From contig JBDHHQ010000006.1 of the NCBI GenBank assembly GCA_039589315.1, positions 32,001 to 96,000 on the forward strand: a stretch of 64,000 nucleotides of DNA. Direction: 5' to 3'. Within the stretch, counting starts at the first letter, position 1. Each line of letters begins with the position of its first letter. Of the stretch, positions 29,567 through 59,325 are shown piece after piece. The notes under the pieces were generated by a model. The model saw nothing but the letters and a program-made list of their open reading frames with translations. It ran no database searches and had not been told where the DNA came from. This stretch comes from Gemmatimonadota bacterium (lineage in GTDB: Bacteria > Gemmatimonadota > Gemmatimonadetes > Longimicrobiales > Gaopeijiaceae). Both the position numbers and the translations under genes were made by a program.

Positions 29567-32005
<2,439 letters not shown>

Positions 32006-49327: not shown

Positions 49328-50050
49328 GTGACCGTCTTGGATCTCGCCCAATCGGGCGGACTTTCGGACACCCTTGCCAACAGTCCTGTCCTGGCTTCTG
49401 TGACGCTGTTCGGGGCCGGTGTGCTGACGAGCCTCACGCCGTGCATCTACCCCATGATCCCCATCACCGCTTCGGTGCTGGCGGGCACGGCGGGAGACGA
49501 GCCCTCGCGCAGGCGGACGGTGGGCCTGACCCTGACATACGTGACGGGCTTGGCCCTCTTCTACGCCGTCCTGGGTCTCATGGCAGGGCTCACCGGGAGC
49601 CTGTTCGGCACGGTGAGCGCGAATCCGTGGGTGCGTTTCGCCACCGGCAACGTGCTTCTGCTCTTCGCCTTGGCCATGCTGGACGTGATCCCCCTCTCCG
49701 CTCCACAACGGCTCCTCAATTGGGCGGGAAACCTCGGGGGTGGATCGTACCCCGCGGTCTTCTTGCTGGGCGCCACGTCCGGCATCGTGGCCGCTCCGTG
49801 CGGCGCGCCCGCGTTTGCCGTGGTGCTCACGTGGGTGGCGGCGACCGGCGCCGGGGTCATGGGTTTCTTGTATCTGTTCGTCTTCTCCCTGGGGATGACG
49901 GCCCTACTGGTGGTGGTGGGCCTGTTCTCCGGCACGCTGGCTCGCTTGCCTCAGGCCGGTCGCTGGACCGGATGGATCAAGAAGAGCGCAGGAGTGATAA
50001 TGCTTGGCGTGGCCCAGTACTACTTCGTGCTGACGGGAATGGGACTGTGA
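49328..50050 (+). CDS. ccdA: CcdA/DsbD-beta transmembrane electron transporter
   Basis: GVLTSLTPCIYPMIP and AAPCGAP (the two catalytic Cys); FSLGM; 6 TM segments. Confidence 0.9.
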   Translation: MTVLDLAQSGGLSDTLANSPVLASVTLFGAGVLTSLTPCIYPMIPITASVLAGTAGDEPSRRRTVGLTLTYVTGLALFYAVLGLMAGLTGSLFGTVSANPWVRFATGNVLLLFALAMLDVIPLSAPQRLLNWAGNLGGGSYPAVFLLGATSGIVAAPCGAPAFAVVLTWVAATGAGVMGFLYLFVFSLGMTALLVVVGLFSGTLARLPQAGRWTGWIKKSAGVIMLGVAQYYFVLTGMGL

Positions 50051-50664
50051 AAGACGAACACGCTGCGATGGAGCTGGAGCGAGTGTGCTCGTCGGGCGCC
50101 ACGGGCCATCGGACCCTTCAGGCCTCTCCGTGGTCGTGGCTCCGGTGGCCGGTGCGGGTGACCCTGCTCCATCTGGCTCTGGTCCTTCCCGCGGCGATCG
50201 TCCCCGCGAGTCCCCTGGCCGCCCAGGAGCGGGGCGAGCTGGGGATCGCCGTGGGCTCCACCGTGGCGCCCGTGGTCGTCGAGGATCTGGACGGCAATCC
50301 GGCCGATCTGGGCGAGTACCTGGGGCAGGGCCCCATGCTCCTGGAGTTCTGGGCCAGCTGGTGCGAGAACTGCAGGGCGCTCCAACCCCGCATGGATGCT
50401 GCCCACGCAGCCTGGGGAGATCAGGTGGCCTTCGTGGCCATCGCGGTAGCCGTGAACCAGACACCGCGGCGGGTGCGGCGGCACATCGACAAGGAGCCGA
50501 TCCCGTATGCCGTGCTCTGGGACGACGGCGGTGGGGCGGTCCGTGCCTTCTTTGCGCCTGCGACCTCCTACGTGGTGGTCCTGGACTCGGCGGGCACCGT
50601 GACGTACACGGGTATCGGCCCCGACCAGGACATCGACGCCGCGGTTCGGACCGCTCTGGACTGA
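50047..50664 (+). CDS. TlpA/ResA family periplasmic disulfide reductase
   Basis: LLEFWASWCENC, cis-Pro loop APATS; GTGA-coupled to ccdA; signal peptide. Confidence 0.9.
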   Translation: MKDEHAAMELERVCSSGATGHRTLQASPWSWLRWPVRVTLLHLALVLPAAIVPASPLAAQERGELGIAVGSTVAPVVVEDLDGNPADLGEYLGQGPMLLEFWASWCENCRALQPRMDAAHAAWGDQVAFVAIAVAVNQTPRRVRRHIDKEPIPYAVLWDDGGGAVRAFFAPATSYVVVLDSAGTVTYTGIGPDQDIDAAVRTALD

Positions 50665-50748: not shown

Positions 50749-51399
50749 CTAGCAGTCTCCGGGTGACAGTGTCCGTTGAAGCAGCAGGGCCAGGTCCACG
50801 CCGTCCCGACCGACCTCCTCCTCCTGCTCGAGCTCCGGCGCGACCGCGGCTACCGCCGCCGCCAATTCGTCGTAGGCGGTCGGATCGATCTCACGGAAGG
50901 GAGAGGCCGTGAACGCCACCCGGCCCTCGGGGTCCAGCACCGCCACCATGCGGGAGCCGGCCGAGCCACTCTCCCTCACCCCCACGCCGAGCTTCCGGAA
51001 GGAGTCCCCGTCGGGATCGGACGCGAACAACATGGGGAAGTCGGCATCCCGGGCCCAGGACGCGAGCTCATCGATGGGGTCCCTGCTTATGGCGATCACG
51101 GTGACGCCGCGCCCACCGCGGAAGATCGTAGCGTACTGATCACGGTACGCTTCCATTTGGATCGTTCACCCACGCGTTCGAGCACGGAAGAAGAACGCGA
51201 GCACGACGGCGTCGCCCCGGAAGTCGCTGAGCCGCACCGGATCGGCCAGAATCCCGTAGCGAGTGGCTCCCGGAAGCTCGAAGTCGGGTGCCATCGTACC
51301 GACAGCGATCGGATCCGGGTCGACGGCTTGCGCGCTCAGGGGAACGACGACAGCGCAGAGCGCGGCCGCGATGAGCAGTGCTGTGCGGAAGAGGCGCAT
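50749..51399 (-). CDS. Exported peroxiredoxin (AhpC/TSA, BCP-like) selenoprotein, Sec78
   Basis: Signal peptide, VGTMAPDFEL, LSDFRG..VVLAFFFRARTRG-TGA-TIQMEAYRDQY, VIAISRD, FASD, R....DPEG.V. The two ORF-track pieces are in one frame, and the TGA is at the TxxC peroxidatic position. Confidence 0.85.
51130..51151 (-). promoter_or_regulatory. Candidate bacterial SECIS element 1
   Basis: AGCGTAC-CGTGATCA-GTACGCT, starting 15 nt after the TGA; GU at +23/+24. Confidence 0.65.
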
Positions 51400-55604: not shown

Positions 55605-57488
55605 ATGCCATCGATGCCCCCGAGGTCCGCCGCGACTCGGTCTCGCCCGCGGCGGCTTCACCCCACTGCGCCTGCTGTCGCTCTGCCGTTTATGGCCGTG
55701 GTACTGGCCAGCTGCGCGCCGTCGACAGGTGTCGGGAGCTCAGGACCATCCCCTAGCGTCGAGACTACCGACTGGGAGCGGAGCGTCGACGGGGCATTCG
55801 CGGCGGACGAGGACGGCGTACCCTTCGCCTTTCCGTTCCTCGGGGGACTCAACGTCCCGCGGCCCCAGTTCGTCGACATCGACGCCGACGGCGACCTGGA
55901 CCTGTTCGTCCAGGAGCGCACCAACGACCTCATGTTCCTCGAGAACGTGGGCTCGGCGACGGCCGCGGTCTTCGAGTGGCGTACCGACCGGTTCATGAAT
56001 CTCGGCCTTGGTGAGTGGAACCGCTTCACGGACCTCGATGCCGACGGCGACCTGGATCTGCTGGCCGAGGAGCCGTTCAGCTACGTCCGCTACTACCGGA
56101 ATGACGGAAGCCCCCAAGCCCCGGCGTTCGTCCTGCTCCCGGACTCCGTGCTGGACGCCGAAGGGGAGCCGGTCTTCTCGGATCGGCAGAACATCCCCTC
56201 GGTGGCGGACATCGACTGCGACGGTCTCCCGGACCTGTTCCTGGGACGGGTCGAAGGGACCGTTACCCGATACGAGATGGTGCCCGGGACAGGCGCTGAT
56301 CCCCGGTTCCGCTTCGTCACTGGCCGCTTCGAGGACATCGAGATCGTGAACCAACTCGGGAGCCTGCACGGGGCCAACAGCATGGCCTTCGCCGACCATG
56401 ACGGCGACGGCGACGCGGACCTCTACTGGGGAGACTTCTTCGAGCCGGGTCTGCTCATCATCGAGAACCGGGGGTCGTGCGATGCCCCGAATCTACGGAG
56501 CGCGCCCGGTCCGGTCCCCGCCACCGCGCCCATCTCCACCAGCGGCTTCAACGCCCCCATGCCTGCGGATATCGACGGTGACGGGGACCTGGACCTCTTC
56601 GTCGGCGTGCTCGGCGGCGCGTTCAACCCCAACCGCACGGCTTCGGACAACTTCCACCTGTACGAGCGTCTGGCGGACGGCACCGTCGAGCTGCGCACGA
56701 CCCGTTACCTCGACGGCATCGATGTGGGAAGCGAGTCCCTCACCGTCCTGCGGGACCTCGACGCCGACAGCGACCTGGACCTTCTGATCTCAAACAAGAT
56801 CGACGCGCACGACCTTCAACGAGCCAGCCTCTACCGCTTCGACAACGTGGGCACGCCCACGGAGCCGAGGTTCCGCGCAGCGGGTACCTTCGACGTGGGC
56901 CGCGATTATCACATGGCGCCGGCATTCGGGGATCTGGACGGGGACGGAGACGACGACCTGCTGCTGGGAACCTGGAACAAGGGTGTGGCCCTGCTCTTGA
57001 ATGTCGGCACGCCCGAGGCTCCCCGCTTCACCGTAGCCGACTCGCAGTTCGTGAAGCTCACCCGGGGAAGCAACACCACGCCGACGCTGGGTGACCTGGA
57101 CGCCGACGGTGACCTGGACCTCGTCATCGGAGAAGCATCGGGGACGCTGAACTACTACCGGAACATCGGGTCCTCCGCCGAGCCGCGCTTCGAGTTGGTG
57201 AGCGATGAGTACGGCGGCTTCGATGTGGGTCGCCGGAGCGCTCCAACGCTGGTGGACGCTGACGGAGACCAGGACCTGGATCTGATCGTCGGACGGGAGA
57301 CGGGAGGTGTCTCGTTCTTCCGGAACGTCGGCACGCGCGCTGCTCCGGAGTTCGAGGAGGCCGAGGCGCCCGACCTGCCGCTCTGGTCCTTCGCGACTCC
57401 TTCGTTCGGTGATCTTGATGGGGACGGCGATCTGGATCTGGTGTCAGGGTCGGGAGCAGGTGGGGTGCTCTACCTGGAAGCGCGCTAG
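55605..57488 (+). CDS. FG-GAP/VCBS repeat (Ca-binding DxDxDG) lipoprotein
   Basis: About 10 DxDxDGDLDL repeats with NVGT...P.F linkers; lipobox LASC. Start could be as early as 55425. Confidence 0.85.
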   Translation: MPSMPPRSAATRSRPRRLHPTAPAVALPFMAVVLASCAPSTGVGSSGPSPSVETTDWERSVDGAFAADEDGVPFAFPFLGGLNVPRPQFVDIDADGDLDLFVQERTNDLMFLENVGSATAAVFEWRTDRFMNLGLGEWNRFTDLDADGDLDLLAEEPFSYVRYYRNDGSPQAPAFVLLPDSVLDAEGEPVFSDRQNIPSVADIDCDGLPDLFLGRVEGTVTRYEMVPGTGADPRFRFVTGRFEDIEIVNQLGSLHGANSMAFADHDGDGDADLYWGDFFEPGLLIIENRGSCDAPNLRSAPGPVPATAPISTSGFNAPMPADIDGDGDLDLFVGVLGGAFNPNRTASDNFHLYERLADGTVELRTTRYLDGIDVGSESLTVLRDLDADSDLDLLISNKIDAHDLQRASLYRFDNVGTPTEPRFRAAGTFDVGRDYHMAPAFGDLDGDGDDDLLLGTWNKGVALLLNVGTPEAPRFTVADSQFVKLTRGSNTTPTLGDLDADGDLDLVIGEASGTLNYYRNIGSSAEPRFELVSDEYGGFDVGRRSAPTLVDADGDQDLDLIVGRETGGVSFFRNVGTRAAPEFEEAEAPDLPLWSFATPSFGDLDGDGDLDLVSGSGAGGVLYLEAR

Positions 57489-57597
57489 CCGCCCCCTCCT
57501 GTCCGAATCGCACGCCAGTCGGCCACAGCCGTGCTCTCGGATCGGGCACCGTCCACTCACCAAGCGTCGTTGTCCGATCGCGCCACCCCCACTGCCC

Positions 57598-57680
57598 CGT
57601 TCTCGAAACGGTGTGCCAATCGCTCCCCGCCGCCGCGTTCTGAAATGGTGTGCCAATCGCTCCCCCTGACGCGTTCTCGA
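57598..57680. repeat. About 37-bp tandem repeat, roughly 2.3 copies
   Basis: Identical 19-mer GGTGTGCCAATCGCTCCCC at 57610 and 57647, each preceded by CGTTCT(C)GAAA. Confidence 0.8.
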
Positions 57681-57725
57681 CTCAGCCACCCGCTCACCCT
57701 ACCGCGCCCTCCGATCGCACCAGCC

Positions 57726-57751
57726 GGGAACTCCTACCCGACTTGCGCGTT
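57726..57751 (+). promoter_or_regulatory. ECF sigma-type promoter motif upstream of selenoprotein 2
   Basis: GGGAACT-N16-GTT, same spacing as 51771-51796. Confidence 0.5.
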
Positions 57752-57826
57752 CCCCGAGGGGAAGCGTGATTGCAGGTCGGTCGGTCCAAGCATACCCATC
57801 CTCGAGGGAGCCGAAGCGTGTCCACC

Positions 57827-58441
57827 ATGCGGCGATTCGTCCTGGGCGCTGCCCTTTCTATCGGGGTCGCCCTGGCTGTGGTCTGGCTCTTCACCGAGAT
57901 GAGCCCGATGGAGCTGGGGCCTGTGGATGGTCACGATCTACCCCCAACCGACCTGGAGCGGGTGGCGGTGGGGAGCGAGGCGCCGGACTTCACGTTGCGT
58001 GCCTTCCCCGAGGGAGCGGTGACCCTGTCCGACTACCGCGGCCAGAGGGATGTGGTCCTGGTCTTCTACAGGGGACACTGGTGACCGTGGTGCGCCCGTC
58101 AGTTCGGTGAACTGAGCGACCTCCTGACGCCCCAGCAGCGTGAGAACATAGAAATCGTGGCGGTCTCGATCGACGATCGGGAGCGGCAGCAGATGATGAT
58201 CGATCGTGTCCGTGAGGAGCACGGCATAGAGATCGACTACGTGCTCCTCACCGATACCGATCACCGAGTCATCAATCGGTACGGCCTCTTCAATCCCGAC
58301 GAGCCCAAGCATCGACCAGTTCCTCACCCCGCCGTCTACGTCATCGACAAGGACGGGATCGTCCGCTGGAAGTTAGTCGAGGTGAACTACAGGGTCAGAG
58401 CGGAGAACGAAGACATCCTGGCTGCCTTGGCGGACCTCTAG
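57827..58441 (+). CDS. Membrane-anchored peroxiredoxin-like (AhpC/TSA) selenoprotein with UxxC motif, Sec86
   Basis: N-terminal TM, VGSEAPDFTL, LSDYRG..VVLVFYRGHW-TGA-PWCARQFGEL, IVAVSID, LLTD, PHPAVYVIDKDGIVRW. Both ORF-track pieces are in frame; the family motif is FYRG.WCP.C. Confidence 0.9.
58099..58115 (+). promoter_or_regulatory. Candidate bacterial SECIS element 2
   Basis: TCAGTTC-GGT-GAACTGA, perfect 7-bp stem starting 15 nt after the TGA; GU at +23/+24. Confidence 0.75.
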
Positions 58442-58649
58442 CTTCCGGAGGCCGTGAGCAAGCGCCTGGCCCGGAGGCCCCGTGTACTGCTTCGCAGGCC
58501 CTGCGCCTTTCGCGGGTTCCTACGCTTCGGGGGCCTCTCGAAGCGTGAGCGGGACCGGTTCCGACGGGGCGCTGGGGTGGGCGGGTCCTTCGCCGTTGGA
58601 TGGTCTCTCCCGGTGGACGGTTTCCGCCAATCGTCGGATTGGCCTCCCT

Positions 58650-58740
58650 CATGCCTGCCCTCGGCTCACGACTCCACCAAGTTCTGCCGTCCCGAGCCAC
58701 CCTGCCCTCCGCTCACGCTCCCACCGGATCCTGCCGTCCC
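58650..58740. repeat. About 47-bp degenerate tandem repeat, 2 copies
   Basis: Minus strand GGGACGGCAGGATCCGGTGGGAGCGTGAGCGGAGGGCAGG and GGGACGGCAGAACTTGGTGGAGTCGTGAGCCGAGGGCAGG. Confidence 0.65.
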
Positions 58741-58763
58741 GCCCGGCCCTGCCTTCCCACCTC

Positions 58764-59325
58764 TCACGATTCCGAGGGCACTGATCCCAACTTGCTGAAG
58801 GCGCTTACGCTTCTGAAGGCGGCGACGGCCATGCCGAGGTCGAGGGTCTCGCCAGCCCAGAGGGGGGTGGTGGTGAAGGGGTCGGGCACGATACCCCGGC
58901 TGCGGTGTTCGGCGAGGAGGTGCGCCCCCGGCCGATCCGGCAGCCTCGGCACGGGCGCCGAGGTGGGGAGGATCCGTCTTCTGGCCGGTAGGACGTGACG
59001 CCGCGCCCCGGCTCGGGCTCCACCCGGAAGCCGTCGTCGTGCGCGGCTCGGTGATGACGCCGGCAGAGCAGCACGAGGTTGCCGAGGCGCGTGGCACCGC
59101 CATCGGCCCAGTGCGTGACGTGATGGGCGTCGCAGAAGCGGAGGCCGCAGCCCGGGAAGCGGCATCCCCGGTCCCGGTGGTCCAGAGCCCGGCGCAGGGC
59201 CGGCGGCACGGTACGGGTCTTCCGGCCCACGTCCAGCAGCGCACCGTCGGGGGGCGTGCGTCATGACGACCAGGCCGGTCGCACGCCGAGCGCCGAGACG
59301 TTTCCGCGGAAACGCGCACGCCAGG
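58764..59325 (-). pseudogene. DUF222-HNH endonuclease remnant, 5'-truncated and multiply frameshifted
   Basis: GVRVSAETSRRSACD | GLVVMTHAP | DGALLDVGRKTRTVPPALRRALDHRDRGCRFPGC..FCDAHH..HWADGG.T.LGNLVLLCRRHH | RILP...TPLWAGETLDLGMAV, spread over three frames. Confidence 0.8.

Follow-up and report, generated by a model that had tools for sequence, protein, structure and literature searches.

A predicted exported selenoprotein redoxin with a U-x-x-C motif and a peroxiredoxin fold in a Gemmatimonadota genome

The question raised by this locus is whether an in-frame TGA codon ends a gene or is read as selenocysteine (Sec). The codon is located at positions 58082-58084 of a 64,000-nucleotide stretch of DNA from a Gemmatimonadota bacterium (positions 32,001 to 96,000 of contig JBDHHQ010000006.1, assembly GCA_039589315.1), and the whole of this stretch is referred to here as the window. 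The TGA lies within a gene of the AhpC/TSA fold, in the motif FYRGHW-U-PWC, with Sec as residue 86 (U86). If the TGA is read through, a single open frame of 204 residues extends from ATG 57827 to TAG 58441. Our reading is that the TGA is read as Sec, to give one exported redoxin of 204-207 residues with the peroxiredoxin (Prx) fold and a U-x-x-C motif, likely an extracytoplasmic thiol:disulfide oxidoreductase. The probability of this reading as a whole is put at roughly 0.6. Judged from the sequences, the gene is very probably a genuine selenoprotein gene, with Sec incorporation predicted.

In the list of open reading frames (ORFs) made with translation table 11, the frame is split into two, 57770..58084 and 58157..58441. 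These two ORFs are what a true stop at the TGA would give, in which case the locus would be a disrupted gene or a pair of small ORFs without a full-length product. TGA is also the commonest stop of the window, where it closes 41 of the 56 long open frames. The distribution of the codon among the orthologues argues against such a stop. An orthologue is present in 18 of 60 other, related genomes (51-86% identity), each with exactly one TGA, and the codon falls in one shared column in all 19 orthologues when the window copy is included. In an evenly sampled set of 401 genomes of the phylum, with an orthologue cut-off of E ≤ 1e-25, 96 genomes have the gene. Exactly one TGA is found in 91 of these and none in the other 5. 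The matches for the 91 run to about residue 202-204, with identities of 46-86%. The TGA occupies the same alignment column in all 50 of the TGA-bearing loci that were read. A pseudogene would not retain both the TGA and an intact downstream frame of 118 codons in 91 of 96 orthologues at this level of identity.

A wider scan covered one genome per GTDB species. Among the best 80 loci considered, 78 have TGA at this position and 2 have TGC. A TGC or TGT in sequencing reads had been named beforehand as a refutation, and the independent assemblies that carry the TGA serve here in place of reads. The Sec forms among them include metagenome-assembled genomes (MAGs) labelled Blastocatellia, Acidiferrales, Rokuibacteriota, Binatia and Udaeobacter, although these are record labels and the bins may be wrong.

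The residue that replaces Sec in other members of the family is Cys. At the Sec column, TGC is found in four of the five orthologues that lack the TGA, and these are true Cys forms. The preliminary description of the locus, made from the sequence alone, had placed the TGA on the first Cys of the motif and had proposed a search for homologues with Cys or TGA at this column. The placement is borne out by the Cys forms, and the search returns TGA in 91 and TGC in 4 of the 96 phylum orthologues. In the four Cys-form genomes, which are 97-99% complete, selA was not found. Matches to selA (512 bits) and tRNA-Sec (71 bits) are present in a Sec-form genome of the same family. One of the Cys-form genomes gives a borderline 50-bit match to tRNA-Sec, with similar scores in control genomes that do not use Sec. 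The Sec and Cys forms track the Sec trait, which is a familiar pattern. The exact coincidence between the Cys forms and the genomes in which no selA was found is a second argument against a true stop.

The machinery for Sec incorporation is encoded in the genome of the window (6.67 Mb in 288 contigs, 95% complete). A tRNA-Sec is found at 75.1 bits (cut-off 47), with anticodon TCA according to ARAGORN. Matches to selA (531 bits), selB (335 bits) and selD (370 bits) are all above the curated cut-offs. The absence of selABCD had been named in advance as evidence that would count against a selenoprotein, and all four components are in fact present. The selD gene (locus L016, G000:C5:69192-70112) carries one in-frame TGA of its own, and its product is probably a Sec-containing selenophosphate synthetase, as judged from the sequence. 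A second redoxin gene of the same genome (locus L025, G000:C42:2351-2728) also has one in-frame TGA, in the motif HRSADW-U-PYC. A hairpin with a GUG loop is located just downstream of that TGA, and the frame is 392 residues long with a long C-terminal extension.

The same machinery bears on another explanation, in which near-cognate decoding or a variant code would insert another amino acid, such as Trp or Cys, at the UGA. Among 36 aligned database homologues, 34 have Cys at the Sec column and 2 have Trp (P0002 and P0014), and the latter would be in agreement with such decoding. Both are full-length metagenome homologues on short contigs, with Trp at the Sec column and the QLGEL segment of the Sec type. 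The Trp is most likely a TGA that was translated as Trp by the gene caller, and the two entries look like (unverified) artefacts of this kind. Moreover, the number of long frames closed by TGA in the window indicates that the code is standard and not reassigned, and the genome has a dedicated tRNA-Sec with selA, selB and selD. Read-through with a residue other than Sec is the least probable of the explanations considered here.

A hairpin is located directly downstream of the TGA. It is formed by TCAGTTC (58099-58105) and GAACTGA (58109-58115), with the loop GGT (58106-58108), and the stem begins 15 nt past the last base of the TGA. This perfect stem, its loop and its distance had been noted beforehand. 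The description is accurate to the base, and the hairpin is folded by RNAfold. The criteria for a bacterial selenocysteine insertion sequence (bSECIS), as they appear in the text of a 2026 review, are a loop of 3-9 nt with an upper stem of 4-16 bp, a G in the first two loop positions, a distance of 16-37 nt from the UGA and a minimum free energy of -7.5 kcal/mol or lower (PMC13188914). The hairpin has a 3-nt GGU loop, a 7-bp stem, a spacing of 21 nt between the UGA and the loop and an energy of -14.1 kcal/mol, in agreement with all four of the published criteria.

Evidence that the hairpin is more than a chance structure comes from the alignment of the 19 orthologues, in which 95.5% of the cells of the upper 7-bp stem are paired. 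When the 3′ partners are slid by 1-3 columns as a control, the pairing falls to 28-44%. Compensatory changes are observed at two pairs of the upper stem, 18-34 and 22-30. The pair at the base of the stem is U-A in 12 orthologues, G-C in 4 and A-U in 1, and the middle pair is C-G in 15 and U-A in 4. In other phyla, the top pair of the stem (24-28) covaries as well, as C-G, U-A or G-C. At the middle pair, the replacement of Phe (TTC) by Leu (CTC) is coupled to a silent change from GAA to GAG. From the sequences, this coupled change is one that selection on the protein alone would not yield.

The loop is conserved in the Sec forms and is different in the Cys forms. Among the 50 Sec loci (47 distinct sequences), all seven pairs of the stem are formed in 40, six in 9 and five in 1. 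The loops of these loci are GGT (13 loci), GGG (16), GTG (16) and GGC (5), so that the first base is G and the second is G or U in all 50. None of the four Cys forms has a G in the first position. Their loop codon is AAA, AAG or CAG, encoding Lys or Gln as compared to Gly or Val in the Sec forms, and only four to six of the seven pairs are formed. The covariation of the hairpin and the presence of the Sec machinery are additional arguments against a true stop.

Several observations count against recoding at this TGA. The folding energy of the single sequence is undistinctive (-21.4 kcal/mol over 69 nt, z = -1.03), with 35 of 200 shuffled sequences being at least as stable, and it is therefore the comparative evidence that decides. 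A search of the whole window against Rfam at the gathering threshold gave no match, which is uninformative. The lower stem is not conserved, being paired in 59.6% of the cells for the 19 orthologues, and only five or six of the seven upper pairs are formed in 10 of the 50 Sec loci. In addition, the orthologue in one genome, G197 (locus L083, G197:C1, approximately 2230632-2231400, minus strand), has the TGA followed by a 1-nt frameshift after the sequence U-P-F-C, as would be expected for a gene that is already broken. Over the 118 codons downstream of this frameshift, an identity of 53% to the query is retained, and the assembly is a single contig. The frameshift is either that of a recent pseudogene or an assembly error in a homopolymer.

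These observations limit what had been proposed at the outset. The identification of the hairpin as a bacterial SECIS stands, with the published criteria and the covariation of the upper stem in its favor, and its conserved part is confined to the 7-bp upper stem and the loop that begins with G. A degraded downstream frame in relatives had also been named as a warning sign. The frame is kept in 91 of the 96 phylum orthologues, and it is disrupted in G197. Overall, termination at the TGA is highly improbable.

The overall fold of the protein is that of the AhpC/TSA family. The Pfam domain PF00578 is found with an E value of 1e-28 (100.2 bits, cut-off 26), and the Redoxin and Thioredoxin_8 domains give weaker matches. 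The thioredoxin fold anticipated for this protein is in agreement with this assignment. The AlphaFold2 model, based on an alignment of 37 sequences, has a mean predicted local distance difference test score (pLDDT) of 85, with residues 1-36 being poorly defined. The best structural matches with Foldseek are peroxiredoxins (5enu, AhpE 1xvw/4x1u and Bcp4 3hjp), with TM scores on the target of up to 0.87. The best sequence matches in the Protein Data Bank are BCP and AhpE, with E values of about 1e-11 to 1e-10. ResA is matched by sequence with an E value of 3e-9 and is ranked 47 by Foldseek.

The active site of the protein differs from that of the peroxiredoxins. When it is aligned to BCP and AhpE with HMMER, U86 is equivalent to the Thr/Ser of the Prx motif and Cys89 to the peroxidatic Cys. 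The Prx Pro is aligned with Arg82, and the catalytic Arg of AhpE is aligned with Pro168 in the P-H-P loop. The canonical Prx signature of Pro-x3-Thr/Ser-x2-Cys and a distal Arg is therefore missing, with only the Cys (Cys89) being retained. The sequence U-[PIG]-x-C is found in all the orthologues that were read, and Arg82, Trp85 and Gln92, next to the Sec residue, are invariant in the alignment of homologues. In the model, U86 is located immediately before the helix of residues 87-96, and Pro168 immediately before the strand of residues 169-173. This arrangement is the layout of a thioredoxin-type CxxC motif, with Pro168 as a putative cis-Pro. With Sec at the position of the Prx Thr, Cys89 at that of the peroxidatic Cys and the Arg, Pro and Thr of the Prx site missing, the protein is predicted to be a thioredoxin-type U-x-x-C oxidoreductase, that is, a thioredoxin-like redox center on a peroxiredoxin scaffold.

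The main rival to this function is that of an exported Sec peroxidase, or a sulfenate/hydroperoxide reductase, in which Sec86 would be the peroxidatic residue, oxidized to a selenenic acid, and Cys89 the resolving residue. The scaffold is that of a peroxiredoxin, with the best matches being BCP and AhpE by sequence and peroxiredoxins by fold, and the Cys-form orthologues carry the source name 'peroxiredoxin family protein'. The invariant Arg82, Trp85 and Gln92 could activate a peroxide. Selenium-dependent peroxidases that lack the Prx Thr and Arg exist, for example the glutathione peroxidases. On the other hand, three of the four catalytic residues of the peroxiredoxins are replaced here (Pro by Arg82, Thr by U86 and Arg by Pro168), the register of the motif and the P-H-P loop are thioredoxin-like, and the scores against the curated peroxiredoxin models are all far from the cut-offs, for example 46 bits for PrxU as compared to 270. 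A peroxidase is thus possible, and we consider it rather unlikely.

Some of the evidence is unfavorable to an oxidoreductase function as well. The nearest solved structures, by both sequence and fold, are peroxiredoxins (AhpE, BCP and 2-Cys Prx), with ResA far down the Foldseek list. The protein scores far below the curated cut-offs of the thioredoxin-like families, with 57 bits for ResA (cut-off 170), 26 for DsbE (123) and 23 for TlpA (230). When the neighbors within 1.5 kb on either side were clustered for 48 loci, no cluster of flanking ORFs was common to more than 12 of them, frames overlapping the gene itself aside; the high G+C content gives many spurious ORFs in this comparison. A functional link to the best CcdA/DsbD-type transporter gene of the genome, located at 49328-50050, was rejected because this gene already has a Cys-type TlpA-like neighbor of its own.

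For the predicted thiol:disulfide oxidoreductase, the following sequence of events can be proposed. SelB, with GTP and Sec-tRNA(Sec), would bind the hairpin while the ribosome is on the UGA codon, and Sec would be inserted as in the selABCD paradigm of E. coli. The protein would then be exported by means of its N-terminal signal. Sec86 would be positioned at the N-terminal end of the helix of residues 87-96, like the attacking Cys of thioredoxins, and its selenolate would attack a disulfide (or a sulfenate) of the substrate. Cys89 would resolve the mixed intermediate, giving an intramolecular Se-S bond. Re-reduction would depend on electrons that cross the membrane through a CcdA/DsbD-type transporter, for which the genome has three CcdA/DsbD_TM genes above the cut-off.

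The N-terminus of the window copy consists of Met-Arg-Arg and a hydrophobic stretch of 19 residues, without a lipobox Cys or a clear AxA cleavage site. The N-termini of the orthologues are of three types, with a lipobox Cys, with an AxA-Q signal peptide, or with an uncleaved-looking segment as in the window copy. A lipobox Cys is found in 13 loci by pattern and in about 16 of 50 by eye, and the N-terminus is missing in 3 loci. From these sequences, a location outside the cytoplasm is well supported, with export as a trait of the family. An N-terminal transmembrane anchor and a periplasm-facing enzyme had been suggested beforehand. The extracytoplasmic location is in agreement with the export signals of the orthologues, and the membrane anchor is plausible for the window copy only.

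The start codon of the gene is probably not the ATG at 57827. In a relative of the same genus, the position of this ATG is occupied by CCG, and a TTG is aligned with the GTG at 57818 of the window. The GTG and the aligned TTG are both located 7 nt 3′ of a conserved GGGAG. The coding sequence (CDS) is therefore probably 57818-58441, with 207 residues, and GTG 57818 is the more likely start as judged from this alignment. The 204-residue frame first described is open from ATG 57827 to TAG 58441 and complete at its 3′ end, and it would be extended by three residues at its N-terminus. The features of the gene are listed in Table 1.

Table 1. Features of the predicted selenoprotein gene, in coordinates of the window.
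Feature	Position	Strand	Evidence
Selenoprotein CDS, likely start GTG 57818, stop TAG 58439-58441	57818..58441	+	TGA read-through; alignment with same-genus relative
Shine-Dalgarno-like GAGGGAG, 7 nt 5′ of GTG 57818	57804..57810	+	GGGAG kept in same-genus relative; function inferred
N-terminal export segment (putative), MRR and hydrophobic stretch FVLGAALSIGVALAVVWLF	57827..57895	+	Translation; helix 12-22 in the model, with low pLDDT
AhpC/TSA (redoxin) domain, residues 48-181	57968..58369	+	Pfam PF00578; AlphaFold2 model, Foldseek
TGA, predicted selenocysteine (U86), first position of U-P-W-C	58082..58084	+	Column conservation; TGC in Cys forms
TGC, Cys89, predicted resolving Cys of U-x-x-C	58091..58093	+	Invariant in homologue alignment; alignments to 2cx3 and 1xvw
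Extended hairpin, two extra 3-bp helices under the core, not conserved	58089..58121	+	RNAfold
Conserved SECIS core (predicted), 7-bp stem UCAGUUC/GAACUGA, loop GGU, UGA-loop spacing 21 nt	58099..58115	+	Folding; covariation
P166-H167-P168 loop	58322..58330	+	P166 and H167 invariant, P168 at least 90%; AhpE alignment; strand 169-173 in the model

A block of about 50 nt on the 5′ side of the start (57730-57780) is nearly identical in the same-genus relative, with diverged sequences on its flanks. It may be a promoter or a regulatory site. A consensus scan of 57400-58800 for a sigma-70 promoter or an intrinsic terminator found none, and the block had no match. An exact 19-nt direct repeat is located further upstream, at 57610-57628 and 57647-57665, with a period of 37 nt. 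It is intergenic, about 150-210 nt upstream of the gene. No further copy occurs in the 6.67-Mb genome, and the corresponding locus of the same-genus relative does not have the repeat. A tandem binding site is one possible explanation, and a recent duplication at this place is another. Since the repeat is missing from the relative, it was rejected as a part of the selenoprotein feature.

The gene is flanked by genes for FG-GAP repeat proteins upstream and for a vWA/YfbK protein downstream. The best CcdA/DsbD-type transporter of the genome (152 bits) is encoded within the window, on the plus strand. It is followed by the Cys-type TlpA-like thioredoxin, with the motif WCENC, at about 50100-50664 (+). 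Adjoining this pair, at 50749-51399 on the minus strand, is a gene with an in-frame TGA (T-R-G-U) that encodes an exported peroxiredoxin. The CcdA, the TlpA-like thioredoxin and the Sec-peroxiredoxin make up a small periplasmic redox cluster, at a distance of 7 kb from the selenoprotein gene. Both Sec genes, that for the U-x-x-C redoxin and that for the Sec-peroxiredoxin, end in TAG.

An orthologue of the Sec-peroxiredoxin is present in 328 of the 401 phylum genomes, a count that includes one genome flagged as unpublished (G212), as compared to 96 of 401 for the U-x-x-C redoxin. With these numbers the co-occurrence of the two genes is uninformative, and a link between them on this basis was rejected. 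In many genomes of the window's family (for example G321, G122, G256, G370 and G396), the two genes are found on one contig at a distance of 7-16 kb, as in the window, and in other genera of this family (for example G006 and G010) the distance is in the range of megabases. The spacing of 7-16 kb is read as regional synteny.

A more far-reaching proposal would take these proteins as a phylum-spanning and uncurated clade of exported 'shifted-register' peroxiredoxins. In such proteins, selenium at the position of the Prx Thr would carry out the peroxide or sulfenate chemistry and the peroxidatic Cys would be demoted to a resolving role. They would be periplasmic in Gemmatimonadota and in some MAGs labelled as Acidobacteriota, and would form a network with the Sec-peroxiredoxin located 7 kb away. 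We regard this proposal as speculative and doubtful.

The practical significance of the locus lies in annotation. Gene callers split this gene or translate its TGA as Trp, and there is no curated NCBIfam model for the clade. The locus had been described beforehand as unannotated, and this would be in agreement with the C-terminal fragments of 114 residues in the protein database and with the lack of an NCBIfam match above its cut-off. The missing model is probably the reason why the annotation pipelines split the gene. The gene is present in about a quarter of the sampled Gemmatimonadota genomes; as the clade is this common and is without a curated model, a single model would repair hundreds of annotations. 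The family also provides a natural contrast, between Sec forms, with a covarying hairpin and a loop codon restricted to Gly or Val, and Cys forms that have lost both. This contrast at the loop codon and the hairpin shows the constraint of the SECIS on the protein sequence. Proteins of this kind, their recoding mechanism and the pattern of Sec/Cys exchange are already established, and the locus opens no new question in these respects. For the genome of the window, the gene is one more exported U-x-x-C redoxin.

Selenoproteins of this kind have been catalogued since the metagenome selenoproteomes of 2005-2008 (PMC2398784). In Table 2 of the Global Ocean Sampling (GOS) selenoproteome, the entry 'Prx-like 1' (pfam00578, UxxC) comprises 225 selenoproteins, as compared to 2,740 Cys homologues (PMC2398784). 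The table of the 2026 review includes a 'Prx-like thiol:disulfide oxidoreductase' (PF00578; UxxC, UxxU) as a family 'predicted with high confidence' (PMC13188914). The gene described here has both of the features that define this kind, the PF00578 domain and a U-x-x-C motif with Sec in the first position (U86-P-W-C89), and we assign it to the catalogued Prx-like thiol:disulfide oxidoreductase or Prx-like 1 kind, as matched by description rather than by a reference sequence. The many Cys homologues, the SECIS directly downstream of the TGA and a function that is known by prediction are also shared with Prx-like 1. In comparison, the Gemmatimonadota clade has a conserved N-terminal extension of its own (LGPxDGxDL...) and an export signal, and it is centered on Gemmatimonadota and Longimicrobiales. 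A description of such a clade was not found in the literature, although the supplements, and a 2004 paper cited by the review, may list members; the word 'gemmatimonad' occurs 0 times in the main text of the review (PMC13188914).

Several curated NCBIfam models cover selenoproteins, or related proteins, with the thioredoxin or redoxin fold: PrxU (NF040737), the SelL-related family (NF040769), WAxxUGC_long (NF041054) and TUGYCR (NF053656). The scores for the window protein are 46 bits for PrxU (cut-off 270), 32 for the SelL-related family (120), 28.5 for WAxxUGC_long (300) and 17 for TUGYCR (100), and no NCBIfam model reaches its cut-off on this protein.

The fold is the same as that of the 1-Cys/BCP peroxiredoxins, including AhpE from M. 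tuberculosis (1xvw/4x1u), BCP from Aeropyrum pernix (2cx3) and Bcp4 from Sulfolobus (3hjp), with TM scores of 0.81-0.87 and sequence identities of 23-27%, and Cys89 corresponds to their peroxidatic Cys. The Pro, Thr and Arg of these enzymes are Arg82, U86 and Pro168 here. The Sec is an additional redox residue, located three positions on the N-terminal side of the Cys, and the protein is predicted to be exported.

With ResA, TlpA and CcmG (DsbE), the protein is predicted to share an exported or anchored thioredoxin fold, a W-C-x-x-C type motif at the start of the first helix, an opposing Pro loop and a likely dependence on CcdA/DsbD for electrons. It differs from them in having Sec as the predicted attacking residue, and in having no cytochrome-c-maturation or other conserved neighborhood within the 1.5-kb flanks.

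A further comparison is with the Cys-form orthologues of Gemmatimonadaceae (for example P0044, source name Gemmatimonas phototrophica). These have TGC in place of the TGA, a loop codon for Lys, Gln or Arg as compared to Gly or Val, and a weakened hairpin, and selA was not found in the four genomes that carry them. They are 46-50% identical to the window protein over the full length, with the same signal peptide and with the same motif in the form C-P-Y-C.

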